42,135 nt of DNA from an uncultured Methanospirillum sp. (GCA_964637135.1 CAZWTX010000002.1:124001-166135), one strand, 5' to 3'. Shown: positions 1-28,502, numbered from the stretch's first letter. The notes: generated by a model from the letters alone, not told the origin. Translations and numbers: made by a program.

Positions 1-977
1 AAGAGATGATTATCATGAAAAATCCTGACTACTGGGGAAAGAAAGCATCTATAAACGAAGTTGATTACAAGGTGGTTCCGGAAGCTGCAACCCGTTCATT
101 GCTCCTTGAGAGTGGCGATGTCGATATCATCCAGATCGTTCCAGCCGATATCGCTAAATCGTTTGCATCCAAATCCGGTTTCACAGTAAATTCGCAACCG
201 ATTTCCCGTGTCAGGGCAATGTTCTATAACTGTGAAAGCGGCCCGTTTGCAGATCAGAAAGTCAGACAGGCGATGAACTATGCTATAGACCGGCAGGCAA
301 TTGTCGATTATATTTTAGAAGGGGTCGGATCTCCAGCCGCCAGTCTCTTCCCACCTGAGTTTTTCTGGGCTGATAAGAGTATACAGCCGTTTGCATACGA
401 TCCAGAAAAGGCAAAGACCATGCTTGCCGAAGCAGGGTGGAAAGATTCCAACAACGACGGAGTTCTTGATAAGGACGGAGAGAAGTTGTCAATAACCCTG
501 GTAACGTATCCCGAACGTGCTGAATTACCTCCAATCGCTGAGGTCATCCAGGATCAGTTGAAGGAAATTGGTATTGAAGTCGAAATTAAGAGTCTTGATA
601 ATGATTCATCGATTGCCCTTCGAAACAAGGGAGATTTCGACATCTACCTCATGGGAAGAGGACTGCTTTTTACCCCTGATCCTGACGAGGTTATGATGAC
701 TGATTACCATTCTTCCGGGACATCAGGAGATGGTTCCGGAGCATACCGGTGGTCAAATGCCCGGGTGGATGAATTGATAGAACAGGCCAGGGCGGTAAAC
801 GATCCGGATGCACGAAAGATACTCTATGATGAAGCCCAGCAGATTATCGTAGATGAGGCACCGGTATCATTCCTGAATTATTATGTAAACCAGGATATTA
901 CCTCGAGCAACGTGAACGGATACCGGATGCATCCGACCGAGATGTCCTATCACCTGGAGGATGTAACCCTCAGTTAA
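1..977 (+). CDS. ABC transporter substrate-binding protein, family 5 (NikA/DppA/OppA-like), 5'-truncated by the window edge
   Basis: The frame is open from the window start. SBP_bac_5 motifs PFADQKVRQAMNYAIDR, YDPEKAKTMLAEAGW and YDEAQQIIVDEAP. Closely similar to the C-terminal two-thirds of 2904..4439. Confidence 0.9.
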   Translation, partial: EMIIMKNPDYWGKKASINEVDYKVVPEAATRSLLLESGDVDIIQIVPADIAKSFASKSGFTVNSQPISRVRAMFYNCESGPFADQKVRQAMNYAIDRQAIVDYILEGVGSPAASLFPPEFFWADKSIQPFAYDPEKAKTMLAEAGWKDSNNDGVLDKDGEKLSITLVTYPERAELPPIAEVIQDQLKEIGIEVEIKSLDNDSSIALRNKGDFDIYLMGRGLLFTPDPDEVMMTDYHSSGTSGDGSGAYRWSNARVDELIEQARAVNDPDARKILYDEAQQIIVDEAPVSFLNYYVNQDITSSNVNGYRMHPTEMSYHLEDVTLS

Positions 978-988
978 CCCCCTTTTTT
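978..988 (+). terminator. Putative archaeal oligo(T) terminator after the binding-protein gene
   Basis: CCCCCTTTTTT directly after the TAA. Similar T6 runs follow the binding-protein genes ending at 6870 and 28502. Confidence 0.4.
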
Positions 989-998
989 GGTATCGATA

Positions 999-1943
999 AT
1001 GCGTAACTTTATTCTCATTCGTCTTCTCCAGACCATCCCGGTTCTCCTTGGGATCACCTTCATTGCCTTCTTTCTCCTGTATCTTTCTCCGGGAGATCCT
1101 GCAGAAATAACTCTACGTGCATTGATGAACACGGATAACCCCCCTGATGAGGCCGTTGCTGAACTTCAAAAAGAGATGAACCTCGACAAACCCTGGTACA
1201 TCCAGTACACATCATGGCTCTCACGGGTGATGACCGGTGACCTGGGGTATTCATACCAGACACGGAGAAGTACGGTTGATGAGATTAAACGGGCATTTCC
1301 GGTAACATTTCTGTTATCGACGATTACATTACTTATTTCATGCATTATCGCCATCCCCATCGGTATCCTGGCAGGGATCAGGCAGAATGGGATAATCGAT
1401 CACTTTTCACGTGCACTATCCATCCTGGGTCTCTCAATCCCGGATTTTTTTCTCGGGATCCTGGGCATTCTCATCTTCTCGATTTATCTGAAAATCTTGC
1501 CGGTAGCAGGGTATAAGGGGCCTGAATACCTGATCCTTCCTGCGTTTGCCCTTTCAGCCGGACTCTTTGCGATCACCATGAGGCTCATGCGGACAAGTAT
1601 GGCCGAGGTATTAGAGGAGGAATACATTCGTACGGCGGTTTCAAAAGGCCTTGACAGACCCTCTATCATCAGGAGGCATGCGATAAAAAATGCCATCGTC
1701 CCGGTAATTACCTACATCGGGACCCAGTATGGCTGGCTGTTTGGGGGAACGATGATCATCGAATCACTATTTGCCATTCCCGGAATGGGCAGGCTCTTTG
1801 TGGATGCAGCCTCTACCCGTGACATCATGGTGATGCAGGGCTGCGTTCTAGTATTTGCTATTGTATTTGTGATCATAAATCTCGGTATCGATATCTCGTA
1901 TTACATCCTCGATCCACGGATCCGGGAGGAAAATGAAAACTGA
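999..1943 (+). CDS. Nickel/peptide ABC transporter permease (NikB/DppB-like)
   Basis: N-terminal RLLQTIPVLLGIT..SPGDPA, GDLGYSY, EAA loop EEYIRTAVSKGL, C-terminal LDPRIR. ATG at 999 preferred over TTG at 987. Confidence 0.92.
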   Translation: MRNFILIRLLQTIPVLLGITFIAFFLLYLSPGDPAEITLRALMNTDNPPDEAVAELQKEMNLDKPWYIQYTSWLSRVMTGDLGYSYQTRRSTVDEIKRAFPVTFLLSTITLLISCIIAIPIGILAGIRQNGIIDHFSRALSILGLSIPDFFLGILGILIFSIYLKILPVAGYKGPEYLILPAFALSAGLFAITMRLMRTSMAEVLEEEYIRTAVSKGLDRPSIIRRHAIKNAIVPVITYIGTQYGWLFGGTMIIESLFAIPGMGRLFVDAASTRDIMVMQGCVLVFAIVFVIINLGIDISYYILDPRIREENEN

Positions 1944-2808
1944 TCATAACCTGACCGGTCTTGTGGACTGGTGGGCAGAGACGGTCCCCCGTGTGAGACA
2001 AAAACCGCTCCTGCTCATAGGATTCGTAATACTTATCCTGATGTGCCTGATGGCTGTTTTCGCACCCTTCCTCGCTCCCCATGATCCTGATGAACAGCAT
2101 CTAAAGAACCGGTTCTCTGCCCCGTCAGTCGAGTATCCGCTTGGGACTGATCAGTTCGGACGATGCATCCTGAGCCGGGTCATCTACGGGTCTCAGACAT
2201 CACTCTCGATTGCGGTAATTTCAACGGCCATCGTGGTTGTAATCGGCGTTTTGGTTGGATTATATGCAGGGTATTATCGCAGACTGGATGGAATCCTAAT
2301 GCGTTTTACTGACCTCATGCTTGCATTTCCGAGTATGGTCATCACCCTCGGTCTTGTAGGGATATGCGGCCCGAGTGTCGAGTCTATCATACTCGCCTTA
2401 ACAATTCCGGGATGGGCCAAGTACGCACGGGTGACCCGGTCAACCACTCTTTCCCTGAAAACCAGGGGGTTTGTTGAAGGATCCCGGGCTCTTGGAGGAA
2501 CACATACCCATATCATCTTCCGGCACATCCTCCCAAACTCTGTCGCACCCATCATGGAGATAGCAACCCTTGGTCTTGGAGGAAAGATAATTTCTATCGC
2601 CGGACTTGGGTTTCTGGGTCTAGGAATTCAGCCTCCAACCCCCGAGTGGGGGACTATCATGAATCAGGGATTACCACTCCTTGGAAAGGCACCGATGATT
2701 GCGTTATCAGCAGGACTAATGATCATGATCTTTGTCCTCGCAACTAACCTGATCGGATCCGAAATCCGGGAGATCATGGATCCAAAGTCTGATTCCATTA
2801 TTCTATAA
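1933..2808 (+). CDS. Nickel/peptide ABC transporter permease (NikC/DppC-like)
   Basis: YPLGTDQFGRCILSRVIYG, EAA loop FVEGSRALGG, RHILPN, LGFLGLGIQPPTPEWG. Overlaps the upstream permease. Confidence 0.92.
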   Translation: MKTDHNLTGLVDWWAETVPRVRQKPLLLIGFVILILMCLMAVFAPFLAPHDPDEQHLKNRFSAPSVEYPLGTDQFGRCILSRVIYGSQTSLSIAVISTAIVVVIGVLVGLYAGYYRRLDGILMRFTDLMLAFPSMVITLGLVGICGPSVESIILALTIPGWAKYARVTRSTTLSLKTRGFVEGSRALGGTHTHIIFRHILPNSVAPIMEIATLGLGGKIISIAGLGFLGLGIQPPTPEWGTIMNQGLPLLGKAPMIALSAGLMIMIFVLATNLIGSEIREIMDPKSDSIIL

Positions 2809-2903: not shown

Positions 2904-4439
2904 ATGACGACTGTCACCTTTCGTTGGGTATTTCTCCTACTCCTCCTGATAACCGGAATTACCCTGGTATCAGGAGTATATGCTGAAGAGCTCATTGTTG
3001 CAGGACCATGGGATGCTGATAACATCGATCCGCATGTATCCGGATGGCTCCCACAGTCTTTAGGGGTCATTGAGACACTGGCTGATGTTGATATTGACGG
3101 AACACTCATTCCCTCCCTCGCTACTTCCTGGGAGGTCTCCGAGGATCAGAAGACCTGGACTTTTCATCTTCGGGACGGGGTTATGTTCCATGATGGGACG
3201 CCGTTCACCGCCGAAGCGATGAAGAAATCACTGGAGCACTCCATCGAGAAATCAAGTTCCTTCAAATCGCTTCCTATCGCTAATATCGATGCGACGGATA
3301 AAAATACCCTGAAAATTACCCTTACGAAACCATTCCCCTCATTCCCGGCATATATGGCAAAAGGAGAGAGCGGAGCGCTATCGGAGAATTGTGTTGCACA
3401 GGGAGATGTAACCTCTCCAATCGGAACCGGTCCGTTTTCTTTCGTCTCCTATTCCCCAAATCAGGATTATGTGATTGAGAAGAACAATGCATACTGGGGA
3501 GAGAAAGCAAAGGTGGACAAGGTTACATGGCAGGTTGTTCCTGAAGAACTCACCCGGGCAATGATGCTCCAGAGCGGAGATGTGGATATCATCTTTGAAC
3601 TCTCCCCGAGTGTTGCACAAGACCTGCGATCTGATTCTTCTGTTACCGTAACTGAACAGCCTATTGCACGGGTCAGGGTCATCCAGTATAATGCAGAAAA
3701 AGGACCGTTCGCGGATCAGAAAGTCAGGCAGGCGATGAATTATGGCATCGACCGTCAGAGTCTCATCGATTATGTACTTGAAGGGGTAGGAACTCCGGCT
3801 GCGGGTCTTTTCCCTCCTGAGTTTGCATGGGCAAACAAGGATATTTCGCCGTCCCCATACGATCCGGAAAAGTCAAAATCTATGCTTGCCGAAGCCGGAT
3901 GGAAAGATTCTGATAATGACGGAATTCTTGACAAAGAGGGAGTGCCCTTCAGGATCACCTTCATCACGTATCCTGAGCGGGCCGAACAGCCGGAACTTGC
4001 CGAGGTTATTCAGGATGAACTCAAAAAGATCGGTATCGATGTTGAACTAAAGGTAGTCGATTACGATACCTGTGCTGAGATACAAAAGACAGGAGATTTT
4101 GATATGTATCTGGTTTCACGGGGCACCTTGTGGACTCCTGATCCGGATGATGTAATGATGTCTGATTATCATTCAAGCGGGACATTTGCAAATGGGTATG
4201 GTGGATACCACTGGAAGAGCGAACAGGTTGATAAATTAATCGAGGAGGCACGGACGACTCAGGATCTTCAGGCCCGGAAAAAGATGTACGACGAGGTTCA
4301 GCAGATCATCATTGATGAAGCGCCGGTCTCATACCTGAGTTATTATGTTATTCTTGATGCCGTGAGCTCTAAAGTTCAGGGATTCCATCACCATCCGACT
4401 GAACTTGATTACTTCCTTGAGGATGTATCACTCGGATAG
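2904..4439 (+). CDS. ABC transporter substrate-binding protein, family 5 (NikA/DppA-like), second paralog
   Basis: Hydrophobic signal peptide, PSLATSWEVSEDQKTWTFHLRDGVMFHDGTPFTAE family-5 signature, PIGTGPF. Confidence 0.92.
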   Translation: MTTVTFRWVFLLLLLITGITLVSGVYAEELIVAGPWDADNIDPHVSGWLPQSLGVIETLADVDIDGTLIPSLATSWEVSEDQKTWTFHLRDGVMFHDGTPFTAEAMKKSLEHSIEKSSSFKSLPIANIDATDKNTLKITLTKPFPSFPAYMAKGESGALSENCVAQGDVTSPIGTGPFSFVSYSPNQDYVIEKNNAYWGEKAKVDKVTWQVVPEELTRAMMLQSGDVDIIFELSPSVAQDLRSDSSVTVTEQPIARVRVIQYNAEKGPFADQKVRQAMNYGIDRQSLIDYVLEGVGTPAAGLFPPEFAWANKDISPSPYDPEKSKSMLAEAGWKDSDNDGILDKEGVPFRITFITYPERAEQPELAEVIQDELKKIGIDVELKVVDYDTCAEIQKTGDFDMYLVSRGTLWTPDPDDVMMSDYHSSGTFANGYGGYHWKSEQVDKLIEEARTTQDLQARKKMYDEVQQIIIDEAPVSYLSYYVILDAVSSKVQGFHHHPTELDYFLEDVSLG

Positions 4440-4442
4440 ACG

Positions 4443-5186
4443 ATGAAAGACAGGATAATTGCATACTGGTCTGATGGTTCTCACCGGTATAACCGGAGTG
4501 TGCATGGTACCATCTTCTCCCCGTCTCAGAGAGCCAGATGGCAACGATACCTTGGCAGCCATCTCGGAGAAGGACCACACAATATTCTCGATATCGGCAC
4601 CGGGCCGGGCGTTATCTCCATTGCCCTCGCCGATATGGGACATACTGTAACTGCTGTCGATCTCTCTGATGAGATGCTTGCCAGGGCAAAAGAAAATGCC
4701 GAACATATCGGGGTGGATATTGCATTCCGGAAAGGGGATGCAGAAAACCTTCCCTTCGAGGATAATTCTTTTGATGTCGTAGTAAACCGGTGGGTTCTCT
4801 GGACAATTCCAAGCCCTGATAAGGCATTATCCGAATGGTACCGGGTACTCAAACCGGGAGGACGTGTTCTCTATATCGATGGAAACTGGTATTCACCCGG
4901 AAAAACACCGTATCAGAATGCATGGAAACAATTTTCAAATCTTCTTACTGCAGTTACGGAGATGAAAAATCCCTGGAAGCATGATTATCGCAAGCCGGTC
5001 ATCCAGGAATTATGGTCGACCCATGCATCCCGTCCGGATGACGATATCAACCTCTGTAAGAAGGCCGGGTTTACTAATGTATCGGTGTCCAGGGATGTGA
5101 ACGAGCATACCCTGACGATGATGGAGTATCTCAAGATGGGGTATTATGGTCCGGTATTCCTGGTGAGCGGAAGAAAGGGAGAATAA
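4443..5186 (+). CDS. Class I SAM-dependent methyltransferase (UbiE/Methyltransf_11-like)
   Basis: ILDIGTGPG motif I, AVDLSDEML, GDAENLPFEDNSFDVV, RVLKPGG. Confidence 0.9.
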   Translation: MKDRIIAYWSDGSHRYNRSVHGTIFSPSQRARWQRYLGSHLGEGPHNILDIGTGPGVISIALADMGHTVTAVDLSDEMLARAKENAEHIGVDIAFRKGDAENLPFEDNSFDVVVNRWVLWTIPSPDKALSEWYRVLKPGGRVLYIDGNWYSPGKTPYQNAWKQFSNLLTAVTEMKNPWKHDYRKPVIQELWSTHASRPDDDINLCKKAGFTNVSVSRDVNEHTLTMMEYLKMGYYGPVFLVSGRKGE

Positions 5187-5667: not shown

Positions 5668-6870
5668 ATGTACTCCCGGGAGGGGATTACTATAAAAACA
5701 AGCACCGAATCAACAAAAAAGAACAGGAACCTCCTCTTTCACGGAATTGTTCTTCTTCTGATTTTCCTTCTCACAGCCGGAATAACCGGCACTGTCCTCG
5801 CTGATGATACAAAAACCATCACGGATATGCGTGGAAAAAATGTTACGATCCCTGCGGATCCACAGCGGGTGGCAATCATGAATGCCGGATTTCTTGCCCA
5901 GCTTACCCGGGCTATGGAAGTCAGCGATAAGGTGAAGGCAACCGGCGGACTTTTCTTTGACTGGGAGGACAACGAGGAGAAGAACGAGTATGTCTACCTC
6001 AATCCGGATTTTCAATATCTCCCGAACATTTATGGATGGCAGACCCCTCTGAATGCCGAGACTCTGGCGTTCACCAATCCGGATCTGGTCATATGGGAAG
6101 ATACCGAGTACACCCAGGGTGACAAGTACAAAACCCAGAACGATGTCGATATCGATACTATCGAGAACACGTTGAAGATCCCCCTTGTCCTGGTGAAAGG
6201 AACCGGACTCTATGGGAACGAGGACAACCAGGCAACATACGACACCGTTTCTTTAATGGGTGAGATCTTCAACAAGCAGGATAAGGCTGAAGAGATCAAT
6301 GCCGCGATGAAGAAGCGGGTTGCCGAGGTTGAGGAACGGACAAAAGAGGTTACATCTGATAAACAGGCAAAAGTGCTCTTTATCGGGCTCACCGATGAGC
6401 TTCCCTCTCCGGTATGGGCAAATGCGTATGGCGATGCCAAGTTCTCGGATAATATCCTAAATGTCAAGAACGTCGTGACCGACCAGAGTAACAAGAAGAT
6501 CTCTGCCGAGCAGATCATCAAGCTCAATCCTGAAGTGATCGTACTCACCTCTTACTCAGAGAAAGGACTTAACCCGGACATCTTCAAGGAAGATGAAACA
6601 TTCAAAGAACTCCGGACCGTCGATGCCGTCAAGAATGACCGGATTGTGTCGGTAGGGGATATGACCTGGATCGGGGATTATGGTCTTGACACCCCGATGA
6701 TCCTGATGACCGAAGCCAAGGGTGCTTATCCTGATCTGTTCAAGGACATCAATGGCAGGGACTGGAGTCTCGATTATCTCAAAGAGATCTACGGGATGAA
6801 TGATGATGAGGCTACCATACTCTACGATGATATCATCGGGATGAGCTGGACCAAAGAAAAAGATTTCTAA
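5668..6870 (+). CDS. Fe3+-siderophore/cobalamin-type ABC substrate-binding protein (Peripla_BP_2)
   Basis: Signal peptide, TITDMRGKNVTIPADPQRVA, ISAEQIIKLNPEVI, VDAVKNDRIV. Exact start uncertain (ATG 5668 or SD-preceded ATA 5692). Confidence 0.88.
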   Translation: MYSREGITIKTSTESTKKNRNLLFHGIVLLLIFLLTAGITGTVLADDTKTITDMRGKNVTIPADPQRVAIMNAGFLAQLTRAMEVSDKVKATGGLFFDWEDNEEKNEYVYLNPDFQYLPNIYGWQTPLNAETLAFTNPDLVIWEDTEYTQGDKYKTQNDVDIDTIENTLKIPLVLVKGTGLYGNEDNQATYDTVSLMGEIFNKQDKAEEINAAMKKRVAEVEERTKEVTSDKQAKVLFIGLTDELPSPVWANAYGDAKFSDNILNVKNVVTDQSNKKISAEQIIKLNPEVIVLTSYSEKGLNPDIFKEDETFKELRTVDAVKNDRIVSVGDMTWIGDYGLDTPMILMTEAKGAYPDLFKDINGRDWSLDYLKEIYGMNDDEATILYDDIIGMSWTKEKDF

Positions 6871-6887
6871 TCCTTTTTTACACCATC

Positions 6888-7922
6888 ATGCCGGTTTCAT
6901 CGACGCTTTTTCCTGAACGCAGACGGAAAAAAATTATCCTGCTTATTCTCCTTCTGGTTCTGATCGGTATCATGATGGTCACGGTCACCGCCGGAGTCTA
7001 TCCGATATCAGTCCAGGATGTGTATCTCTCTATTTTTCAGCATCTCGGGCTCGGAGAGCCGACAGGGCTCACCCACGACATAATCGTCTGGGAGATCAGG
7101 ATTCCCCGGGTACTGCTAGCTGCCCTGGTGGGGGGAGCTCTTGCAATATCAGGAGCAGTCTTTCAGGGCATCTTCCGAAATCCGCTGGTTGAGCCGTACA
7201 TCATGGGGGTCTCTTCCGGGGCGGCCGTCGGAGCCGGGCTTGCAATACTCTTTGGACTCATGATCTTCTCCATGCAGGGTTCTGCATTTCTCTTCGGGGT
7301 TCTGGCAGCTCTCCTCGCATACGGATTTGCAACGACCCGACGGGAGACCCCGTTGGTGAACCTGATCCTTGCAGGAATCGTCGTAAATGCCATGTTTGAT
7401 GCGGTACTCGCGATCCTGAAGACGATAGCACCGTATGGAAAACTTCAGGATCTCGTCTTCTGGCTGATGGGAGGATTAGGGGGAACAAAATGGGATGATG
7501 TCTCGGCCATCGGTGCTCAGATCCTTATCGGGGTGGTGCTCACCTCGCTCCTTGGCTGGCAGCTCAATCTTCTCGCCGTCGGTGAGGAGGATGCCCGATC
7601 CCTCGGGCTCTCCGTCGGCCGGATGAAAGCGATCCTGCTCGGCCTTGCAATCTATCTCACTTCCATATCGGTTGCCACGGTCGGGATCATCGCATGGATC
7701 GGCCTCATCATGCCGCATATCTCACGGATGATGGTCGGCCCCGATCACCGGATGCTTCTTCCGGCGAGTGCAATCATCGGTGCGATATTTCTCGTTATCT
7801 GCGATACCCTCGCCCGAACCCTCATCACGGCAGAGATCCCGATCAGCATCATCACGTCAGCCATCGGCGGACCGTATCTTCTCTATCTCATCCGGAGAAA
7901 CCGGTCCCTGTATTTCAGGTAA
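6888..7922 (+). CDS. FecCD/BtuC-family ABC permease
   Basis: WEIRIPRVLLAALVGGALAISGAVFQGIFRNPLVEPYIMGVSSGA, GEEDARSLG, GIIAWIGLIMPH. Confidence 0.93.
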   Translation: MPVSSTLFPERRRKKIILLILLLVLIGIMMVTVTAGVYPISVQDVYLSIFQHLGLGEPTGLTHDIIVWEIRIPRVLLAALVGGALAISGAVFQGIFRNPLVEPYIMGVSSGAAVGAGLAILFGLMIFSMQGSAFLFGVLAALLAYGFATTRRETPLVNLILAGIVVNAMFDAVLAILKTIAPYGKLQDLVFWLMGGLGGTKWDDVSAIGAQILIGVVLTSLLGWQLNLLAVGEEDARSLGLSVGRMKAILLGLAIYLTSISVATVGIIAWIGLIMPHISRMMVGPDHRMLLPASAIIGAIFLVICDTLARTLITAEIPISIITSAIGGPYLLYLIRRNRSLYFR

Positions 7923-7924
7923 TC

Positions 7925-8692
7925 ATGATAACGGTGCACAATTGTATCAGCGGATATGGGGAGAAGAGAATCCTGCATCAGGTCTCCTTCTCGGTTGAGG
8001 CAGGAGCTGTCTGCGGCCTGTTCGGACCGAACGGTTCGGGAAAGACCACTCTTATCAGGTGTTGCTCCGGATCCCATCCATATCAGGGAACCATACGGGT
8101 GAATGGATCTGACATCAGTATGCTCTCCCCCCGGGATCTTGCGAAACATGTCTCGTATGTGCCCCAGAATCACACGCCCATGTTTCCGTTCTCGGTCAAA
8201 GAGGTGGTTCTCATGGGAAGAAACCCCTATGTGAGCCAGATCAGCGGTCCGAGTGAGGAAGACCTAATCAGGACCGAAGTAGTGCTCGAAGAACTGAAGA
8301 TCCGGGATCTTGCCGATCAGCCATATACGGAGTTATCCGGCGGACAGAGGCAACTCGTGATCCTGGCCAGGGCACTCAACCAGGATACCCCGGTGATGCT
8401 TCTTGACGAACCAGCCTCGGCCCTTGATTTCCGAAACCAGATCCGGCTCTGGAGGCTGCTTCGACAACTTGCAGAGAAAGGAAAGACGATCCTGGCATGC
8501 ACCCATGATCCAAACCATATCTGCTGGTTCTGCGATCATGCAGTTGTGATGAAGACCGGAGAAGTGCTCACCCATGGAAGACCCCATGATGCCATCTCAA
8601 CAGGTGTGATGGAGGATCTCTACGGGGATCTCTGTGCAGTTGAGCTGCTCAAGGGACGGATGGTCGTCATGCCGGCTGATTGCTCCGAATAG
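7925..8692 (+). CDS. FecE/BtuD-family ABC ATP-binding protein
   Basis: Walker A GPNGSGKT, LSGGQRQ, Walker B LLDEP, H-loop THD. True start is ATG 7925; the 7694 extension overlaps the permease. Confidence 0.92.
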   Translation: MITVHNCISGYGEKRILHQVSFSVEAGAVCGLFGPNGSGKTTLIRCCSGSHPYQGTIRVNGSDISMLSPRDLAKHVSYVPQNHTPMFPFSVKEVVLMGRNPYVSQISGPSEEDLIRTEVVLEELKIRDLADQPYTELSGGQRQLVILARALNQDTPVMLLDEPASALDFRNQIRLWRLLRQLAEKGKTILACTHDPNHICWFCDHAVVMKTGEVLTHGRPHDAISTGVMEDLYGDLCAVELLKGRMVVMPADCSE

Positions 8693-10881: not shown

Positions 10882-10909
10882 GTATTAAGTTTTGATATTT
10901 TGGTATTAC
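10882..10909. promoter_or_regulatory. Candidate NikR-type operator upstream of the DUF4198 gene
   Basis: GTATTAA-N14-GTATTAC with an AT-rich spacer. The 7-14-7 geometry matches the E. coli NikR operator. Confidence 0.4.
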
Positions 10910-17509: not shown

Positions 17510-17980
17510 TGATGCCTGGCCGCTGTTGCCATCGTCATGGCTGGCAGGGGAACCGGCAAAAAAGAGAGAGTGAGGGGTGCTTCTCCTGGGAATGCATGTA
17601 GGTATGAATGAAAGTCTCTTCTGGCATGATTTACTGATCACTGTTCTGTTCAATGGCCCTGAACCATGTACAAGCGTGAGATAACAGCCCTCACTTCCCG
17701 GATCACTATCTCTTTTTTGTATGAATTAATATTACGATTTTACCTCCGGTATCCGCATCATAAAGAAATGTTTTACCGGCCGGTGATTTATCCATGGACA
17801 GATACCCATGGATTGTACCTCATTTTCTCTGAAACTTCAGGAGAGCTTTTTCAGAGAATGCCAACATGATGACCAAGATCAGGACACGCTATATCATGAT
17901 TACCGGGATCTTTTCTGAATAATTTAAAATTGATAACACTAAATAATCGGATTTGCAATGGAGTATGTACTATACACGCA

Positions 17981-19829: not shown

Positions 19830-20670
19830 CCGTGGCGGACGGGCGGATGAGCCGTGAAATCCCGTCAGCGGTGATCTCATCAAGGCGGACATATTTTGCG
19901 CCGAGCCGCATGGCAAGTTCCTTCGCAAGGCCGAACGAGATCAGCCCCCGTTCGGTATCAATAACCAGTGCCGGAATATCCTTCTCCCGGATCGTCCCGG
20001 CGATCTCAAGCGCATCAGCCCGGGGATCTCCCCCCGAAAGGGCGATGTTTCCCTTTCCGTCCGAAATAAGGACGAGATGGGGGAGGGTATCCCGATCCTT
20101 AAGCCGTTCCCTCATCAGCACCGAGAGGCCGCAGGAGAGGCCTCCGGCAAGAGGGGTCTTTCCGCCGGTCGGGATGGCGGAGAGCACGGACCGGGCCCGC
20201 TCCACGCTTACCGTCGGCTCCATCAGAACCTCGGCAGACCGACCCCGGAAGACGACGAGCCCTACCCGGTCACGGTTCTGGTATGCCTCGGTGAGGAGGG
20301 AGAAAATCGCCCCTTTCACCGCACTCATCCGCCGTTCCACGCCCATGCTTCCGCTTGCGTCGACGATGAAGAGGATCAGGTTCCCGACTTTTCGTTCCCT
20401 GACCTTCTCCCTGATATCAGCGGGGGTGATCCGGATCGCGGTGTCTCCCGGCCGGGCCTGCTGGTATGGGGCTGCCGCCCGGATGGTGGCATCAAGGGCA
20501 ATATCAGGAGTTATCCGGACAGGGATCCGGCTCCGGACATACTGTCCGGTCGCCGAGAGAGCTGCCCTGCTCCTCCCTGATCCTTCCGGGATCTCCACGT
20601 GACGCCGGTCATCAGGTTTGAGCATCCCCTTCTGCACGAGGATCAGTGGATCCTCTCCAAAGACCGTCAC
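19819..20670 (-). CDS. chlD: Class I chelatase medium subunit, C-terminal vWA part (ChlD/BchD-like)
   Basis: [20 protein letters not shown] motif [36 protein letters not shown]. Lies in the -1 frame relative to the upstream AAA+ ORF. Confidence 0.85.
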
Positions 20671-21761
20671 CTGGCTGGCGTCCGGCCGGTCTGCAGAAGG
20701 GGAGGACGAGGGTGCTGGTGCTGCCCTGGTTCCTCTCCATGATTCTTCCGGATCGACTCCTCGAGTTTTTCCGGGTCAAACTGCTGGTCAGTAAAGGGTT
20801 TTCTTCGCATCCGGTGGGGAAGAACAAACCCGGCTGCCTCCCTGACGTCGTCCTCTGTCACGACCTCCCGTCCGTCACAGGCAGCAATCGTCGTTGCCGT
20901 CTTGATCATCGTGATATCTGCCCGGTGTCCGTCGACGTCCATATCGATGCAGATCGTAACAACGAGCCTGAGGAGATCCTCGGGGAACCGGACATCAGGA
21001 AGGAGCGCCGTTGCCCGGATAAGCGACGAGCGGATCATCTCGTCTTCCCCGGTCCAGGTCGCGATAAATGCATGCTGGTCTGCTTCGTATGCCATTCTCC
21101 GCCTGATCACGTCCATCCGGATATCCGGATCGCGGATTCCTTCAACCTCGACACAGAGTCCGAACCGGTCAAGGAGCTGGGGTCTGAGATCTCCTTCCTC
21201 CGGGTTCATCGTTCCGATCAGGGTGAAGACCGAGGGATGGGAGAAGGAGATGCCTTCCCGTTCGACGATGTTCACTCCCATCGCGGCAACATCCAGGAGC
21301 ACGTCAACAATATGATCATTGAGGAGGTTCACCTCGTCGACATAGAGGATGTTCCGGTTTGCTTCTGCAAGGATCCCGGGTTCGAAGCTCTTCTCTCCTT
21401 TCTTGATTGCCTGCTCGATATCGATCGTCCCGACGACCTTGTCCTCGGTCGCACTCACCGGGAGCTCGACCACGTGTACCCGCCGGGTTTCGGTTCCGGG
21501 TCGCTCCCCCTGGCTTCGGCAGCGATGGCAGAGCCCGGCAGGATCGGCCGGGGAACACCCGAACGGGCAGCCGTTCACTACCTCGATCTCGGGGAGAAGG
21601 GCGGCAAGTCCACGCACCGCCGTTGATTTCGCCGTTCCCTTCTCACCCTTGATCAGGACCCCGCCGATATGCGGATTGACGGCATTGAGGAGCAGGGCTT
21701 TCTTCATCCGGTCCTGTCCGACAATGGCAGAGAACGGATAGATGTTGTGAAAGTGATGCAT
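20667..21761 (-). CDS. chlI: Class I chelatase AAA+ subunit (ChlI/BchI-like)
   Basis: YPFSAIVGQ, Walker [57 protein letters not shown]. Confidence 0.92.
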
Positions 21762-21918: not shown

Positions 21919-24900
21919 ATGAAGATTACAGCAGTCATGTGGAATTCATACCTTCCGCTCTTCCGGAAGGCGGCAAAATCAATCGGTACAGACCTCTGCA
22001 TCCATGCAACGCGGGATCTCGAGGATAAGCCGGAAAAAGTACGGCAGGTGATCAGGGACTGTGAATCTGCAGATCTCATCCTCCTGTACCGGACCGGGAG
22101 TCTCTTCTGGACGGAGATCGAAGACGAGATCCGCAGGATCGGGCAGACGATCCCGATCGTCTGCGTCGGGTACGATCCTTCCTACTGGCTCCTCTCAACC
22201 GTGGATCCGGCAATCGTCGCGACCACGTATGCTTACATCTCCTATAACGGGCGTTCCAACATCGAAAACCTCCTGAAGTACCTCCCGACCTGCCTCCTCG
22301 GGATCAATCGCTCTCCACAGCCGCCGATTCCCGTTCCCTGGGAAGGAATCTGCCATCCGGATGCTGCAAGGGATGCACTCACGATGGAGGAGTTCATGGA
22401 CTGGTACCCGGCACGGAACGCTCCCTGGATCGCGGTCCTCCTCTCCCGGACTGCATGGGTCACCGGTAACCTTGCAATGGAACACCTGGTGATCCGGTCG
22501 CTCGAAGAAAAGGGGCTTAATGTTATCCCTGTCTTCACATACGCGGTCAGGGACGATGCCCTCGGGGCAGCAGGCATGGCTGATGTCATCGAGAGATTTC
22601 TCCTCTCCGGAAAGATGCCGAAAATTTCCGCTCTCGTCAAGCTTGTCTCCTTCTTTGTCGGGGCCAGTAAGGAGGACTCCTCCTCGTCTGCCAACCCGGG
22701 CCGCGGGGTCTCGGTTCTCTCCCGGCTGGGCGTCCCGGTCTTCCAGCCGATCATCGCATACTACACGTCAATCAGCCGGTGGGAGGAGGAGAACACCCTT
22801 ACTGGTGATATCGGATGGTCAGTCGCCCTTCCCGAGTTTGAAGGCGTTATCGAACCGATCATCATCGGCGCCCAGGCTGAAGGCGGGGAACCCTCCGGTC
22901 AGCGCCGTCCGATCCCGGACCGGGTGGAGAAACTGGCACGCCGGGTCGCCCGCTGGGTCAGGCTGACCGCGACGCCGAGAGCTGAACGAAAAGTCGCATT
23001 CATCCTCCACAATGCCCCTTGTGCCGGGGTTGAGGCAAATATCGGGAGTGCTGCTCATCTCGACTCCCTGGAGAGTGTCGCCCGGATCCTTGCTACCATG
23101 AAGAAAGAGGGATACCAGGTAACTCACCCGGCATCGGGTGAGGAACTTGCACGGTTATTCCTCGATAAAAAGGCGATATCAGAGTTCAGGTGGACCACCG
23201 CCGGGGATATCGTAGCTCATGGCGGCTGCCTTGCCCGGATACCCCGGGACGAATACACCGCCTGGTTCGCTTTCCTCCCGGAGCGTACCCAGGCAGAAAT
23301 GACCGATGCATGGGGAGAACCACCAGGAAAGGGGATGGTCTTTGAAGACACCATCCTTGTCACCGGTCTTTCATTCGAAAACGCCATCGTATGCGTACAG
23401 CCCAAGCGGGGCTGCTATGGGGCGAAATGTGATGGCGAGGTCTGCAAGATCCTCCATGACCCGCATGTCCCCCCAACCCACCAGTACCTTGCCACCTACC
23501 ACTGGATCGATCAGGTGTTCGGTGCCGATCTGATCATCCATGTCGGAACCCATGGCAACCTTGAGTTCCTGCCCGGTAAAGGAGTGGCCCTCTCCGGGAC
23601 CTGTTATCCTGATATCGCCATCGGTGACATGCCCCACCTGTACATCTACAATGCCGACAATCCTGCAGAAGGAGCGATCGCGAAACGACGGAGTTATGCA
23701 TGTATCATCGATCACCTCATGCCGGTGATGGAACAGGCAGGGTTGTACGACGAACTCGAGGATCTCGAACGGATCCTTGATGAGTATGAGAGCGCCCGGT
23801 ACGACCCGGCACGGGCCCACGCCCTCGCCCACGAAATAGGGGAGGCGATCCAAAAGGCCCACCTCGAGAGGGAATTCCCGGTTAACCATGACACGGATAT
23901 CGGCGATATCCTTCCCCGTCTTCACGAGCAGCTCAGCCGGCTCCGGCTCACAAAGATCCCGGTCGGAATGCATATCTTCGGGAATATCCCGGATGACGGG
24001 AAAGAGATCGCACTCATCCGGGCAGTACTGGAATACGAGACCGGACCGGGATCCCTTCAGGCAGCGATCGCCGGAGAAATGGGATACTCCTCACCGATCC
24101 TGGTCAGTGAACCAAAAGCAGGTACTTCCGGTGATTGCGACCCGGACGGCAGGATCAGGGAAGAGATCTCCGCCCGGGCTGCCAGGATCATAACCGCCGT
24201 TCTCGCCGGCGGGAAGACCGGCGCCGCCATCGGTCTTCCGGGCAGTGATCCCGGAACCGTGGATCTCCTGGTCAGCCGGATCCTGGATATCCATGAACGG
24301 ATCCAGGCATCTGACGAGATGCGGGCGCTTCTCTCTGCCATGAACGGCTCGTATATCCCCCCGGGGCCCTCGGGACTGATCACAAGGGGACGCGATGACA
24401 TCCTCCCCACCGGCCGGAACTTCTACTCACTTGATCCCCACCGCCTGCCGAGCCGGTCGGCATATACCGTCGGGGAACAGCTTGCCTATGCCCTTCTGAA
24501 GCGATACCGGGAGGAACACGGGCAGCTCCCCGAATCGGTCGGGTACTACTGGATGGCAAACGACGTCATGTGGACAGACGGAGAGGGCCTCGCCCAGCTC
24601 TTCGCCCTGATCGGAGTCAGGCCGGTATGGCAGGGGAACGGAAGGGTGAAGAGTTTCACGATCATTCCTCCCGATGAACTCGGCCGGCCACGGATTGACA
24701 TCCTCGTCCGTGCCTCGGGGATCATCAGGGACAACTTCCCCCACCTCATCGAACTCCTGGATGATGCAGTTTCAGCGGTTGCCGCCCTCGACGAACCTGA
24801 CGGGATAAACTACGTCCGGAAACATGCCAGGGAAGCCGTCCAGGAACAGGATTCCTCCTGGCGGGAAGCAACTCTCCGGATCTTCGCTGGTATGGAGGGA

Positions 24901-25722
24901 ACCTATTCGTCCGGGGTAAACCTTGCCGTCTATGCCGGGGCCTGGAAGGAAGAGGCCGATCTTGCCGATATCTATCTCGCGTATAACGGGTATGCATACG
25001 GCCGGGGTGTCTCTGGGACAGCCTCGCACGGGCAGTTTGCGAAGGCCCTCTCCACGGTCGGGGTCACGTTTAACAAGATGCCGACCGACGAGTATGATCT
25101 CCTCGGGTGCTGCTGTTACTTTGCAAACCAGGGAGGGATGACAGCAGCCGCACGCCAGCTCTCCGGGAAGGAGATCCCGGCATACTTCGGGGACACCCGC
25201 GAACCGGGACAGGCCCGGGTGAACACGCTCGGTGACGAGATACGGCGGGTCGTCAGATCGAAGATCCTCAATCCCCGCTGGATAGAGGGAATGAAAGAGC
25301 ACGGGTACCGGGGGGCAGCGGAGATCTCAAAACGGGTCGGGCGGGTGTATGGCTGGGAAGCCGCGACACAGGAAGTGGACGACTGGATCTTCGACGAGGT
25401 CGCGGAGACCTTTGTCAACGATCCACAAATGCGCGATTTCTTCGCGGAGAAGAATCCATATGCCCTTGAAGAGATGGCACGGCGGCTGCTCGAGGCAGAA
25501 GAGCGGGGACTGTGGGATGCCGACCCTGAGATCCTGGAAGAACTGAAGAACTCGTACCTCGAGATCGAGTCATGGATGGAGGACGAGGAACATGTCGGTG
25601 AATTCCAGGGAGGATCGGTTGATATCATCACCCGGGCCGATGCCCCGGAATGGGATGCATCCATGCTGCAGGTGCTTGGACAGGTACGGGGAAAGATGCA
25701 TAAGCGGGAGCAGAATGGTTAG
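21919..25722 (+). CDS. cobN: CobN/ChlH-family chelatase large subunit
   Basis: 1267 aa. ALPEFEGVIEP, PPTHQYLATY, HVGTHGNLEFLPGK, LPTGRNFY, LGRPRID, LLGCCCYF, LNPRWIEGMKEHGYRGA. Confidence 0.95.
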   Translation: MKITAVMWNSYLPLFRKAAKSIGTDLCIHATRDLEDKPEKVRQVIRDCESADLILLYRTGSLFWTEIEDEIRRIGQTIPIVCVGYDPSYWLLSTVDPAIVATTYAYISYNGRSNIENLLKYLPTCLLGINRSPQPPIPVPWEGICHPDAARDALTMEEFMDWYPARNAPWIAVLLSRTAWVTGNLAMEHLVIRSLEEKGLNVIPVFTYAVRDDALGAAGMADVIERFLLSGKMPKISALVKLVSFFVGASKEDSSSSANPGRGVSVLSRLGVPVFQPIIAYYTSISRWEEENTLTGDIGWSVALPEFEGVIEPIIIGAQAEGGEPSGQRRPIPDRVEKLARRVARWVRLTATPRAERKVAFILHNAPCAGVEANIGSAAHLDSLESVARILATMKKEGYQVTHPASGEELARLFLDKKAISEFRWTTAGDIVAHGGCLARIPRDEYTAWFAFLPERTQAEMTDAWGEPPGKGMVFEDTILVTGLSFENAIVCVQPKRGCYGAKCDGEVCKILHDPHVPPTHQYLATYHWIDQVFGADLIIHVGTHGNLEFLPGKGVALSGTCYPDIAIGDMPHLYIYNADNPAEGAIAKRRSYACIIDHLMPVMEQAGLYDELEDLERILDEYESARYDPARAHALAHEIGEAIQKAHLEREFPVNHDTDIGDILPRLHEQLSRLRLTKIPVGMHIFGNIPDDGKEIALIRAVLEYETGPGSLQAAIAGEMGYSSPILVSEPKAGTSGDCDPDGRIREEISARAARIITAVLAGGKTGAAIGLPGSDPGTVDLLVSRILDIHERIQASDEMRALLSAMNGSYIPPGPSGLITRGRDDILPTGRNFYSLDPHRLPSRSAYTVGEQLAYALLKRYREEHGQLPESVGYYWMANDVMWTDGEGLAQLFALIGVRPVWQGNGRVKSFTIIPPDELGRPRIDILVRASGIIRDNFPHLIELLDDAVSAVAALDEPDGINYVRKHAREAVQEQDSSWREATLRIFAGMEGTYSSGVNLAVYAGAWKEEADLADIYLAYNGYAYGRGVSGTASHGQFAKALSTVGVTFNKMPTDEYDLLGCCCYFANQGGMTAAARQLSGKEIPAYFGDTREPGQARVNTLGDEIRRVVRSKILNPRWIEGMKEHGYRGAAEISKRVGRVYGWEAATQEVDDWIFDEVAETFVNDPQMRDFFAEKNPYALEEMARRLLEAEERGLWDADPEILEELKNSYLEIESWMEDEEHVGEFQGGSVDIITRADAPEWDASMLQVLGQVRGKMHKREQNG

Positions 25723-26679
25723 ATGAATGCCATCGAAATTGAAGGACTCACGAAGAACTACGGGGAACTGTGTGCCGTGAACGGAATGACCCTGGATATC
25801 TCAAACGAGATATTCGGACTGCTCGGTCCGAACGGATCCGGGAAGACGACCACGGTGCTCATGCTCACTACCCTCCTTGCCCCAACCGCGGGTTCTGCCC
25901 GGGTTTGTGGATTTGACGTCATGAAAGAACCTCTCCGGGTCAGGGAACAGATCAGTTACGTCCCGCAGGACATGGCAGTCGATGTGAGGCTGACCGGGCG
26001 GGAGAATGTCAGGATGTACGCCGATCTCTACGGGGTATCCCGGCCGAAAGACCGGACCGACGAGGTGCTTGCGGTGCTTGAACTCTCCGGCCGGGCAGAC
26101 GAGCGGGCAAAGAACTACTCAGGGGGAATGCGGCGCCGGCTCGAACTTGCCCAGGCCCTCGTGCATGATCCCGAGGTGCTGTTCCTCGATGAACCGACCG
26201 TCGGGCTCGATGTCGCAGCACGGAAGAAGATCTGGGAACATATCCGTTCGCTGAAGAAGCATGGTATGACCGTCTTTGTCACGACCCATTACATGGACGA
26301 GGCTGACCGGAACTGCGACCGGGCTGCCATAGTGGACAAGGGCTCGGTGAAAGCCTGCGACACCCCGGGAGGACTCCGGGAGATGATCCCGGGTGATATC
26401 ATCGTCGCAACCGTCACCGGAGCAGTAGAACGGGAAAACCTCCCCGGAATCACCTGGAAGGAACAGGACGGGGATGAACTGGTTTTCGGGGCGGAAAACG
26501 GGGAAGAGGCCATGATCGCGATCCGTGAGATGCTGAAGAGACAGGGCGTCGGCCTTTCCGGGATCTCCCAGCGACGACCGACACTTGACGATGTCTTCCT
26601 GTACCTCGTCGAGAGTGCCGAGGACACCCGCCCGTTTAACCTGAGCTCGTTTCGGAACATGCTCGGGAGACGGGGATGA
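25723..26679 (+). CDS. ABC-2 exporter ATP-binding protein (DrrA-like)
   Basis: GPNGSGKT, YSGGMRRRLE, FLDEPTVGLD, TTHYMDEA, PTLDDVFL. Confidence 0.92.
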   Translation: MNAIEIEGLTKNYGELCAVNGMTLDISNEIFGLLGPNGSGKTTTVLMLTTLLAPTAGSARVCGFDVMKEPLRVREQISYVPQDMAVDVRLTGRENVRMYADLYGVSRPKDRTDEVLAVLELSGRADERAKNYSGGMRRRLELAQALVHDPEVLFLDEPTVGLDVAARKKIWEHIRSLKKHGMTVFVTTHYMDEADRNCDRAAIVDKGSVKACDTPGGLREMIPGDIIVATVTGAVERENLPGITWKEQDGDELVFGAENGEEAMIAIREMLKRQGVGLSGISQRRPTLDDVFLYLVESAEDTRPFNLSSFRNMLGRRG

Positions 26680-27401
26680 ACGCGATCCTCGTTTACTGTC
26701 GTCGCGATCTGATCCGCTGGGTGAGAGGAAAATGGGGATTCATCTCAACGATGATCACCCCGGCAGCATGGCTCCTCTTTGTGGGCCTTGCACTCCCCAT
26801 CAGGTTCACCGATAACTACATCGACTTCATCACGCCGGGGATCCTGGTCATGACGATGCTTTCCGCAGCGATGAGCGGCGGAGGACTTCTGATCATGGAC
26901 CGGATGCTCGGGTTCTTCAACAAGTTCCTCGCACTCCCACCGCCCCGGGAGACGATCCTGTACGGGAAGATCCTCGTGACCACCATAAGGGGGATGATGC
27001 AGGCAACGATCATCCTCATCTTCTCAGTCCTTCTCGGGGCTGCCATCCTCAACCCGGTCCAGCTCCTCCTGACGTATGGTGTCCTGATGATATTCGGCTG
27101 CCTCCTCTCCGCATTCAGCACGACCCTTGCGATCTACGTCGGGGACCACGATAACTATGCAGCCGTCAACGCGATGATCACGATGCCACTCTTCTTCACC
27201 TCAAGTGCGATGATGCCGTACGACGTGATGCCTGACTGGATGCGGACAGCAGCGATGGTAAATCCGCTCAGTATTGCGATTGATGCGATCCGGGAAGTAA
27301 AGACGGGGATATTTCCCTTCGATTCATTTGGCATTCTCCTGCTTCTCACCGGAATGATGCTCCTTGTCAGTGTGACCATGTTCAGACGGATACGAATCTG
27401 A
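26676..27401 (+). CDS. ABC-2 exporter permease (DrrB-like)
   Basis: Six hydrophobic segments, YIDFITPGIL, MPLFFTSSAMMP, NPLSIAIDAIR. ATGA overlap with the ATPase. Confidence 0.9.
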   Translation: MNAILVYCRRDLIRWVRGKWGFISTMITPAAWLLFVGLALPIRFTDNYIDFITPGILVMTMLSAAMSGGGLLIMDRMLGFFNKFLALPPPRETILYGKILVTTIRGMMQATIILIFSVLLGAAILNPVQLLLTYGVLMIFGCLLSAFSTTLAIYVGDHDNYAAVNAMITMPLFFTSSAMMPYDVMPDWMRTAAMVNPLSIAIDAIREVKTGIFPFDSFGILLLLTGMMLLVSVTMFRRIRI

Positions 27402-27485
27402 CTTCAGTCAGATCATTTCATAAATATTTTTTATTCGTGTGATCAAGGTGAGAGCCATGACAGTACTGGTGACAAAACGACAGGG

Positions 27486-28502
27486 ATGTGGACCATGGTA
27501 AACCGAAGAACCACAGAAATCCTATTCTGCCTGATCCTGATTTCCGGGCTCCTTGCAACCGGATCTGCCCTCGCAGATGTAAGTATCACGGACAGCGAAG
27601 GAAACCAGATCACCCTGGCAGCACCGGCCTCACGGATCATGGCCACTAACACCGATTGTGCCGAGATGCTTGTTGCTCTCGGGGCGGCAGACCGGATTGC
27701 CGGCGTGAGCCGGTACGTGGTAAATGACACCGTGCTCATGAGTCATCTCCCGGAAGGGGCTGAGAATATCGGGGACTGGCAGATCCCTGACATCGAGAAG
27801 ATCACCGAGATGAACCCGGATCTCATCATCTCATACTCAAGTTCGAAACCAAAGAATCTCGACCAGATAACCGCACTCGGGATCCCGATCGCATACCTTG
27901 ACTGTTACATGAGCGATACCCTCGCCGACGATGCACGGGCTCTCGGGACACTGACCGGCACCGAAGAAAAAGCCGAATCGTTTGCCGCATGGTACTCAAA
28001 ATGGAACAACGCTGTCAGCGAACGGATGGAACCGGTCAATGATAGCCCGACCGTATACATGGAAGGATATTCCGACTTTTCTGCCCAGGGGAAAGGGAGC
28101 GGGGGTGACGGGGTCCTTGCCCTGGTACGGGGAACGAACCTTGCTGCCGCCCTGAACGAGCAGTGGCCAAAGGTGAGCGCCGAATGGGTGATCAGCGAGA
28201 ATCCGGATTACATCCTGAAACTGCTGTCATCCACGAATGCAAAGACCCTGGAGGAACTTGTCGCCGATATCTCTGCACGGGAAGGATTCTCTACGATATC
28301 AGCCGTGAAGAACGGAAAGGTATATGCCCTGAATGGGGAGCTCCTGCTCAGTCCGAAATATCCGGTTGGGCTTGTAACGATGGCAAAGATCCTCCATCCG
28401 GATGCCTGTAGCGATCTCGATCCGGCAGAGGCCCTGGAAGAATATGACCGGGAGTTTGTATCAGGGTTCACCGGAATGGAGACCGTGTACCCGGGAATCT
28501 GA
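27486..28502 (+). CDS. BtuF/Fe-siderophore-type ABC substrate-binding protein
   Basis: Signal peptide, SITDSEGNQITL, PDIEKITEMNPDLII, WPKVSAEWVISENPD, ISAVKNGKVY, MAKILHPD. Confidence 0.9.
   Translation: MWTMVNRRTTEILFCLILISGLLATGSALADVSITDSEGNQITLAAPASRIMATNTDCAEMLVALGAADRIAGVSRYVVNDTVLMSHLPEGAENIGDWQIPDIEKITEMNPDLIISYSSSKPKNLDQITALGIPIAYLDCYMSDTLADDARALGTLTGTEEKAESFAAWYSKWNNAVSERMEPVNDSPTVYMEGYSDFSAQGKGSGGDGVLALVRGTNLAAALNEQWPKVSAEWVISENPDYILKLLSSTNAKTLEELVADISAREGFSTISAVKNGKVYALNGELLLSPKYPVGLVTMAKILHPDACSDLDPAEALEEYDREFVSGFTGMETVYPGI

Follow-up and report, generated by a model that had tools for sequence, protein, structure and literature searches.

An accessory methyl-coenzyme M reductase operon linked to nikR, hmd/hcg and metal-uptake genes in Methanospirillum and its relatives: a candidate nickel-starvation module

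We analyzed a 42,135-nucleotide stretch of DNA from an uncultured Methanospirillum sp. (hereafter, the window; contig C2 of the host assembly G000, G000:C2:124001-166135), which carries a methyl-coenzyme M reductase (MCR) operon of the form mcrBDGA. The host assembly amounts to 2.80 Mb in 116 contigs and is 97.66% complete; its placement in Methanospirillum agrees with the nearest named records of McrB and Hmd. Genes in the window were called by Pfam and NCBIfam profile scans with curated cut-offs (Table 1), and neither mcrC nor mtr was found by these scans. An earlier note, made from the sequence alone, had described the operon as flanked on both sides by metal-acquisition genes and not by mtr, and each gene that it named was present in its place. 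The note had also drawn a metal-scavenging island over positions 1 to 28,502 of the window. This island is real, but profile scans of contig C2 extended it far beyond those limits, to about 112 kb (G000:C2:40033-152502), of which the window is the right end; the hmd-hcg genes, the strongest clue to its function, lie left of the window. The island consists mostly of FecCD and family-5 importers, binding proteins, ATP-binding cassette (ABC) exporters and S-adenosylmethionine (SAM) methyltransferases, together with one CobW gene and some unrelated genes. No run of N occurs from C2:105659 to the contig end.

The left-hand cluster (G000:C2:107878-118675) contains hcgG, F, E, D, C, B and A, hmd, a gene for an FrhD-like protease and a stand-alone mcrD, at 17-26 kb from mcrA. 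In this cluster hmd scored above cut-off and is accompanied by the hcg families (TIGR01723, TIGR03957, TIGR03958, PF11576, PF06690, PF01784 and PF06787), and hcgE was assigned by position only. Hmd was found in only 12 of the 401 genomes of the order. A second mcr operon lies within 20 kb in nine of these 12 genomes; in two it is unlinked, and one genome, on short contigs, was not judgeable. All five Methanospirillum genomes with Hmd carry the accessory MCR. Three of the nine linked genomes, from another family, have an mcrBGA operon without mcrD or mcrC, which lies 0.4 kb from frhD-hcg-hmd and branches separately; a common origin of this type and the window clade was not rejected by the approximately unbiased (AU) test (p-AU 0.13), nor was it demonstrated. 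These compact arrangements, in which mcrBGA adjoins frhD-hcgABCDEFG-hmd, are found at G054:C2:332409-344876, G085:C1:2007766-2020043 and G111:C37:66974-79251.

The stand-alone McrD paralogues form a long-branched clade of their own, with a support of 100 in the Shimodaira-Hasegawa-like approximate likelihood ratio test (SH-aLRT), and most of their genes have a NikR-type site of the kind described below. The host copy is at G000:C2:118130-118675 (L006:18130-18672), and orthologues occur in G024 (two copies), G018, G019, G017, G007, G001 and G003, the last two being genomes in which accessory MCR was not found. The FrhD-like protease gene (G000:C2:116362-116919; L006:16362-16916) stands beside hmd/hcg or accessory mcr in many genomes. 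It is also present at two Methanolinea loci (L169 and L170), and is distant from any NiFe hydrogenase gene seen.

The operon had been taken for a "second-type" MCR, and comparison with relatives bears this out: the complete, single-contig genome of a member of the same genus (G024) has both a canonical mcrBDCGA (McrA 78% identical to that of the window) and an operon of the accessory type (90%). Full-length McrA at 90-94% identity was found in 7 of 24 genus-mates, with the canonical mcrBDCGA copies at 76-78%, and McrB of the accessory type in 8 of 108 genomes of genus g6, which is Methanoregula by grouping with named records. In quick McrA trees, the accessory clade nests among Methanomicrobiales McrA, with SH-aLRT support of 96 for 14 Methanospirillum and Methanoregula rows and of 99 for 16 rows that include two Methanolinea records. 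Topology tests on a quick LG+G4 tree of 26 rows rejected two groupings of the accessory McrA, one with the canonical copies of its genus (p-AU 2.6e-5) and one with Methanobacterium Mrt (p-AU 7.6e-5); on this evidence the window MCR is not an orthologue of Methanobacteriales Mrt.

Seven McrA motifs for the F430 ligand and modified residues, which we take to be the F430 axial Gln, the active-site Tyr and the His, Arg, Gln, Gly and Cys modification sites, were aligned to solved MCRs. Six were identical in 52 of 52 rows and one in 51 of 52, and only one clade-specific column was found, a change from M to T at 251. An MCR with a modified cofactor was set aside on these conserved motifs, and the accessory MCR appears to have an ordinary F430 site.

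A search for further mcrA copies, as the earlier note had proposed, returned a single match in G000, that of the window; the genes downstream of it encode DUF4198 and FecCD proteins, and no mvh operon follows. McrC was not found in the assembly. The lack of a canonical mcr operon probably reflects an assembly gap to the left of contig C26, which opens with a NifX/ATPase gene cluster followed by mtrE-H. In G009 and G022, the same cluster lies about 3 kb after canonical mcrA, and the genes usually upstream of canonical mcrB are likewise missing from the G000 assembly; on both counts we set aside the idea that the window MCR is the organism's only one. Among contigs from four sequencing runs, those of two runs extend past the left end of C26, by about 79 and about 750 letters, too short to show whether canonical mcr adjoins C26. 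The extreme form, in which mcrBDCGA is gone from G000 and the organism relies solely on the accessory enzyme, without McrC, is unlikely, an assembly gap being simpler.

Conservation of the neighbourhood across relatives had been set beforehand as a test of the proposal, and the neighbourhood proved to be conserved. We took 12 marker genes from the G000 island and determined their distances from the accessory operon in the 16 genomes with the accessory clade, many of whose contigs are short. At least one marker lay within 10 kb in 15 of 16 genomes (nikR in seven, hcgG in six, cassette chlI, cassette fecD and the hydrolase-fold gene in five each, and hmd in three). No marker was found at 21 canonical and 7 other mcrC-less mcr operons with flanks of 0.2-14 kb a side, or at 14 Methanoculleus-type loci viewed up to 10 kb a side. 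In seven genomes the contig extends 18 kb or more to either side of the operon. Six of these have a cobN-chlID-fecCD cassette within about 20 kb; in the seventh, G024, cobN is 70 kb away in the same island. Gene order is shuffled from genome to genome, yet linkage is kept across genera at 80-90% protein identity. The accessory mcr operon is thus repeatedly linked with nikR, hmd/hcg, the FrhD-like gene, stand-alone mcrD, importers and the cobN cassette.

Partial copies of the module were also seen. A 39-residue McrA fragment lies between the hydrolase gene and nikR in G008 (C2:169342-169461), a broken hcgG stands next to an McrA fragment on contig C162 of G016, hcgD-G occur without hmd or accessory MCR in G013 (C1:253803-258894), and G001 has the stand-alone mcrD without either. 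These remnants suggest piecemeal, repeated loss of the module.

The host genome encodes a NikR with ribbon-helix-helix (RHH) and nickel-binding domains (G000:C9:70582-71100; PF01402 and PF08753 in an orthologue). In the NikR proteins neighbouring accessory operons, the RHH strand is preserved, as is the H-x-H...C nickel motif. An inverted repeat of 27-28 bp, TRTTAC-N13/14-GTAAYA, was found before hmd, hcg genes and stand-alone mcrD and, in weaker form, before mcrB, and an operator matrix was trained on 15 such sites from other genomes. The NikR signal of delta-proteobacteria, GTGTTAC-N13/14-GTAACAC, has the same inverted-repeat structure and a near-identical half-site, and a nickel-free hydrogenase is a predicted target there too (PMC545781). 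In contrast to that regulon, the host here is archaeal, A often replaces G at the third base, and the predicted targets include an MCR operon. Within the G000 assembly, the site before hmd comes closest to the delta-proteobacterial consensus, with 1 mismatch in 14.

Of the 2288 upstream regions of G000, 14 attain the score of the candidate mcrB operator. In five of six Methanospirillum accessory promoters, G000 included, the best site lies 112-127 nt before mcrB, and accessory mcrB promoters of this genus scored 7.3-15.3 (6 genomes), whereas canonical ones scored -0.9 to 5.9 (11 genomes). Two canonical mcrB promoters of other genera scored 10.7 and 11.8. With the training promoters left out, 162 kb of module loci contained 11 sites scoring at least 12 at spacer 13 and 20 at spacer 14, and 0-5 at each of the other spacers, while 218 kb of canonical mcr loci contained 1 and 2 sites at spacers 13 and 14. 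The earlier note had proposed the system as a candidate for metal-responsive control; the nikR and hmd/hcg neighbours and the NikR-type operator indicate, as a prediction, control by metal and specifically by nickel. NikR-type sites were also found elsewhere in G000: one scoring 14.9 (G000:C4:43630) between the gene for formylmethanofuran dehydrogenase subunit A and a TudS-related gene, and others before a cobalt/nickel energy-coupling factor (ECF) ATPase gene (C11:20674) and before a binding-protein cluster (C13:32752).

On balance, we think that the island core is probably a module for nickel starvation, with importers, Hmd, an extra McrD and the accessory MCR all released by NikR. Co-regulation of accessory mcr with the metal genes is predicted here from promoter sequences. 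When nickel is plentiful, nickel-loaded NikR would repress the module promoters. As nickel falls, these promoters would open and the importers would scavenge nickel chelates. Hmd together with Mtd would replace the nickel-iron (NiFe) hydrogenase Frh, freeing nickel for F430, and the extra McrD would help to load scarce F430. The accessory MCR would then take a larger share of methane flux, with McrC and activation proteins borrowed from elsewhere. In Methanothermobacter marburgensis, levels of Hmd, HcgG, CobN1, NikR1 and transporters increase when nickel is limiting, whereas Mcr declines to about 10% and Mrt, less strongly, to about 50%; at low nickel Hmd and Mtd take over from Frh (PMC12350162). 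McrD is reported to bind MCR during F430 installation (PMC10288656). A more elaborate version, which we regard as doubtful, would have a NikR-controlled MCR isoenzyme for nickel famine, giving more methane per nickel or taking up F430 more readily and served by its own stand-alone McrD, alongside an ATP-driven, Cys-rich CobN-ChlID that would insert nickel into imported tetrapyrroles, or recover it from them, once too little is left for CfbA.

Several observations weigh against a nickel-starvation module. The G000 nikR is on another contig (C9); NikR can activate as well as repress, so the direction of regulation given above is a prediction. The operator consensus was first read by eye from a promoter set that included mcrB promoters, and the mcrB site has 4 mismatches to the delta-proteobacterial consensus. 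The mean number of mismatches was 4.86 for other mcrC-less operons, little different from the 4.5 and 5.12 of the accessory clade, and most genus g6 mcrB sites are weak (7.2-12.9). A spacer control across G000 was negative, with 20 and 19 sites at spacers 13 and 14 and 12-22 at the others, and within the island 5 and 3 sites were found at these spacers, yet 5 at spacer 8. The marker list was derived from the G000 island itself, the control operons had shorter flanks (0.2-14 kb a side), and the relatives are kin that share neighbourhoods by descent, so the counts overstate independence. One genome with the accessory operon (G274) has no marker within 10 kb. In genus g6, Hmd was found in only two of the eight accessory-MCR genomes, and hcgG in none of the five searched among the other six. 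Finally, Mrt of M. marburgensis still drops under nickel limitation and is not induced, and it drops under H2 limitation too (PMC12350162).

The accessory MCR might instead be the Mrt-like member of a high-hydrogen isoenzyme pair, made when H2 is plentiful and travelling with Hmd, with the metal genes as mere co-residents. The BDGA form without C is that of Mrt, and in Methanothermobacter mrt (MTH1129-1132) has mvh, hcgG (1137), hmd (1142) and hcgA-F (1143-1148) as neighbours (PMC3087415), an arrangement echoed by a Methanobacterium record (L220) in which mvhDGAB, hcgG and mrtBDGA are adjacent; Mrt also declines under H2+CO2 limitation (PMC12350162). We nevertheless consider this account rather unlikely. 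It leaves unexplained the proximity of nikR in seven of the 16 genomes, four of them at 0.2 kb or less, the constant spacing between mcrB and the operator-like site, and the six genus g6 operons in genomes without an Hmd match, three of which are beside nikR and the CobN cassette; moreover, the window McrA is not an Mrt orthologue by the AU test. Nickel starvation and high hydrogen can both hold as explanations.

The shuffled gene order, the remnants in G008, G016, G013 and G001 and the occurrence of the CobN cassette without accessory MCR would also fit hitch-hiking, whereby an ancestral island picked up the operon and its descendants keep, shuffle or lose pieces, the MCR not being co-regulated with the metal genes. 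This is unlikely, given that the link persists across genera despite the shuffling, that the operator-like site is conserved in position, and that a second, separately branching mcrBGA lies beside frhD-hcg-hmd in three genomes, although one origin of the two types was not rejected.

The right-hand genes of the island form a cassette that was conserved when relatives' loci were compared: fecD-fecE, chlI/chlD, cobN, an ABC-2 pair and a binding protein. The HVGTHG motif at residue 541 of the window CobN corresponds to the superfamily motif H-x-G-(T/A)-H-G, which is common to all class I chelatases and not specific. At residues ~1061-1075, GCCC replaces the acidic DSDD of solved CobN proteins; GCCC was present in 8 of the 12 relatives' CobN loci scanned, the remainder being cut off, divergent or unmatched by the pattern, and it may form a thiolate metal site in this Methanomicrobiales CobN subfamily. 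The HmuS motif LSLDHxxEFMGG, with the second axial His, is absent from the window CobN, which has DLLGCCCYFANQGG at that place, and HmuS ranked below CobN and ChlH among the solved relatives of the protein. Since a ChlI/ChlD ATP motor is encoded, insertion rather than removal is indicated, and CobN with its motor looks like an inserting chelatase. The cassette is like HmuS and the CobNST/ChlHID systems in its CobN-family large subunit, H-x-G-T-H-G motif and adjoining tetrapyrrole-type importers; it differs from HmuS in the missing motif and the ChlI/ChlD motor, and from solved CobN in its GCCC.

In other genomes, the corrinoid genes btuR, cbiZ and cbiA/cobB-like adjoin the cassette or the accessory operon. 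These corrinoid-salvage neighbours would favour cobalt as the metal, and nickel is possible in view of GCCC and the rise of CobN under nickel limitation in M. marburgensis. CobN was matched in 26 of 61 relatives, and the cobN-chlID-fecCD cassette occurs in three genomes with one mcrA match (G009, G013 and G031). We infer that the CobN cassette combines an ATP-driven chelatase with tetrapyrrole uptake, that it moves on its own, and that it is a frequent addition to the module.

The chlI and vWA genes of the cassette are split in the window. In the 10 relatives' loci examined, the AAA half and the von Willebrand factor A (vWA) half of chlD are fused in one open reading frame (ORF), whereas here they are in different frames (window 20667-20780), which overlap in the linker, with no run of six or more A at the joint. 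The split may be natural, as in one G033 pair, or may reflect a programmed frameshift or an assembly error; frameshifts joining such chelatase subunits have been described (PMC9227772).

The earlier note had suggested that the island may salvage F430 or exchange its metal, and that the MCR may be suited to such a cofactor, with cobN as part of the system. In its broader form, this would have intact tetrapyrroles (F430, corrinoids or heme) imported and their metal removed or swapped by CobN-ChlID as the main purpose of the island. The closeness of the cassette to the operon in six of the seven well-covered genomes, the increase of CobN1 under nickel limitation (PMC12350162), the Cys residues in place of DSDD, and an operator-like site (12.2) between chlID and cobN in G292 are in its favour. 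HmuS, a CobN-family protein, strips iron from heme, the role of its archaeal homologues being called unclear by the authors (PMC12583661), and handling of F430 would be a fitting role for additional McrD (PMC10288656). We nonetheless consider it very unlikely that cofactor salvage is the main purpose, because McrA keeps canonical motifs and has just one column specific to the clade, CobN has an ATP motor and no HmuS motif, G000 has a class II CbiX/CfbA-type chelatase gene at another place, the btuR, cbiZ and cbiA/cobB-like neighbours point to corrinoids and not to F430, no site scoring at least 8 with the operator matrix was found before cobN or chlI in the window, and the cassette is also present in the single-mcrA genomes.

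Some elements of this picture are already known: an mcrC-less second MCR near hmd-hcg, in Methanothermobacter, and a second mcrA and Hmd, each in Methanospirillum strain GP1. The Methanothermobacter mrtBDGA operon lacks mcrC, lies near hmd/hcg, and encodes an enzyme whose share rises under nickel limitation (PMC3087415; PMC12350162); by comparison, the window McrA is not its orthologue, no mvh follows, and nikR, importers, stand-alone mcrD and the CobN cassette are neighbours. The nickel-limitation response of M. marburgensis (Hmd/Mtd, Elp-Hdr, CobN1, NikR1 and transporters) shares Hmd, HcgG, CobN, NikR, transporters and a second MCR with the island (PMC12350162). There, however, a proteome response was measured, whereas in the present host, which belongs to another order, the genes cluster in a variable island and their regulation is predicted. 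Strain GP1 has a divergent second McrA (76.5% to the canonical copy, with possible horizontal transfer) and Hmd, each only in GP1 among the strains compared; in the accessible parts of that account, the two are mentioned separately and tied neither to each other nor to NikR or metal uptake (PMC11346949). A literature search, which covered few subscription journals, found no paper in which the second MCR of a Methanomicrobiales member is connected with hmd, nikR or cobN.

MCR cannot work without nickel, and the two MCRs of many methanogens are usually ascribed to hydrogen supply. Nickel in natural habitats is nanomolar, far under the levels of culture media (PMC12350162). An accessory MCR clade tied to nikR, Hmd and metal uptake would offer a specific example in which nickel may be the switch, and this among Methanomicrobiales, of which few genomes have Hmd; a single species of the order is listed with Hmd in earlier work (PMC3087415). 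One Methanospirillum strain in culture is reported to have both a second mcrA and Hmd, which close relatives lack, making a nickel-starvation role testable now. The module also gives a handle on the class I CobN chelatases of methanogens and on the role of McrD. It is also relevant to how digesters are dosed with nickel and to mcrA surveys, in which the accessory paralogue branches away from the host's canonical gene.

The left-hand part of the window is occupied by importers. The gene start of binding protein 1 and two ATPase genes of its importer are left of the window, and a FecBCE-type importer spans 5668-8692. All of the transporters named in the earlier note are present, but their substrate labels are less secure: "Nik", "BtuF" and "Fec" are best matches under curated cut-offs, with nickel families ranking first for the Nik-type importer, and any specificity for nickel, B12, heme or siderophore is therefore putative. 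The SAM methyltransferase at 4443-5186 has 15 tblastn matches in the G000 genome. G024 also has a DUF4198 gene, about 4 kb from mcrB. The hydrolase-fold gene was found in 15 of the 401 genomes of the order, 14 of them Methanospirillum, and lies within 1 kb of mcrB in five.

Table 1. Features of the window, with coordinates in nucleotides from its first letter.
Feature	Coordinates	Strand	Evidence and remarks
NikA/DppA-family binding protein 1, C-terminal part	1..977	+	PF00496; best NCBIfam matches are nickel NikA, below cut-off
NikB-like permease	987..1943	+	NF045470, 333.7 bits (cut-off 350)
NikC-like permease	1933..2808	+	NF045473/TIGR02790, below cut-off
NikA/DppA-family binding protein 2	2904..4439	+	Solved relatives ranked 2-8 are nickel-binding proteins (E ~1e-61), above DppA and HbpA
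Class I SAM methyltransferase	4443..5186	+	PF08241; one of many island paralogues
Class III (FecB/BtuF-fold) binding protein	5668..6870	+	PF01497; solved relatives only weak
FecCD/BtuC permease	6888..7922	+	PF01032
FecE/BtuD ATPase	7694..8692	+	PF00005; family matches begin at residue 78; true start probably ~7925
DUF4198 protein	10107..10850	-	PF10670
Weak NikR-type inverted repeat before DUF4198	10882..10909	.	Matrix score 10.5
mcrA, accessory MCR	11413..13119	-	TIGR03256, above cut-off
mcrG	13116..13886	-	TIGR03259, above cut-off
mcrD, operon copy	13892..14425	-	TIGR03260, above cut-off; outside the stand-alone McrD clade
mcrB	14427..15728	-	TIGR03257, above cut-off
Candidate NikR-type operator, 116 nt before the mcrB start	15818..15844	.	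Perfect GTGTTAC half-site and weak half-site; score 12.3
Weak NikR-type inverted repeat before the hydrolase-fold gene	16367..16393	.	Score 10.8; same place in G024 18.5, in G007 13.7
Alpha/beta-hydrolase-fold protein, divergent from mcrB	16574..17509	+	Start codon uncertain; frame open upstream of GTG 16841
FecCD/BtuC permease	17930..19060	+	PF01032; 55-68% identical orthologues beside cobN in relatives
FecE/BtuD ATPase	19065..19829	+	Profile scans
vWA half of ChlD-type chelatase motor subunit	19819..20670	-	TIGR02442/TIGR02031, partial
ChlI-type AAA+ chelatase subunit	20667..21761	-	TIGR02030, 438 bits (cut-off 467)
CobN-family class I chelatase large subunit	21919..25722	+	NF004646, above cut-off; HVGTHG and GCCC motifs
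ABC-2/DrrA-type ATPase	25723..26679	+	TIGR01188, above cut-off
ABC-2 membrane protein	26676..27401	+	PF01061
Class III binding protein, BtuF/iron-chelate-like	27486..28502	+	PF01497; E from 1e-14 to 1e-9 for iron-chelate, B12 and heme binders alike

Neither the Rfam nor the tRNA scan gave a match in the window, and no riboswitch reached the gathering score; a scan for sigma-70 promoters and terminators, whose model does not cover archaeal promoters, gave hits at chance level. Between the FecBCE-type importer and the DUF4198 gene (window 8759-9641), a nucleotidyltransferase-like gene (archaeal clusters, with weak DUF2204/AbiEii look-alikes) is accompanied by a small basic ORF, and the pair is perhaps toxin-antitoxin-like. 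Farther left in the island, two FecE-type ATPase genes (G000:C2:54959-55783 and 83010-83834) have equal length and the same N-terminal sequence, a sign of recent duplication inside the island. Directly past the right end of the island, an MreA-family regulator (window 29201-29674, minus strand) scored above its NCBIfam cut-off. It is followed at 29954-40740 by genes for a KamA-like radical SAM aminomutase, an HTH-PAS regulator, a response regulator and an archaeal type IV pilus cluster (ATPase, membrane protein and pilins), and pilin genes like these also flank the module in G113 and G266.

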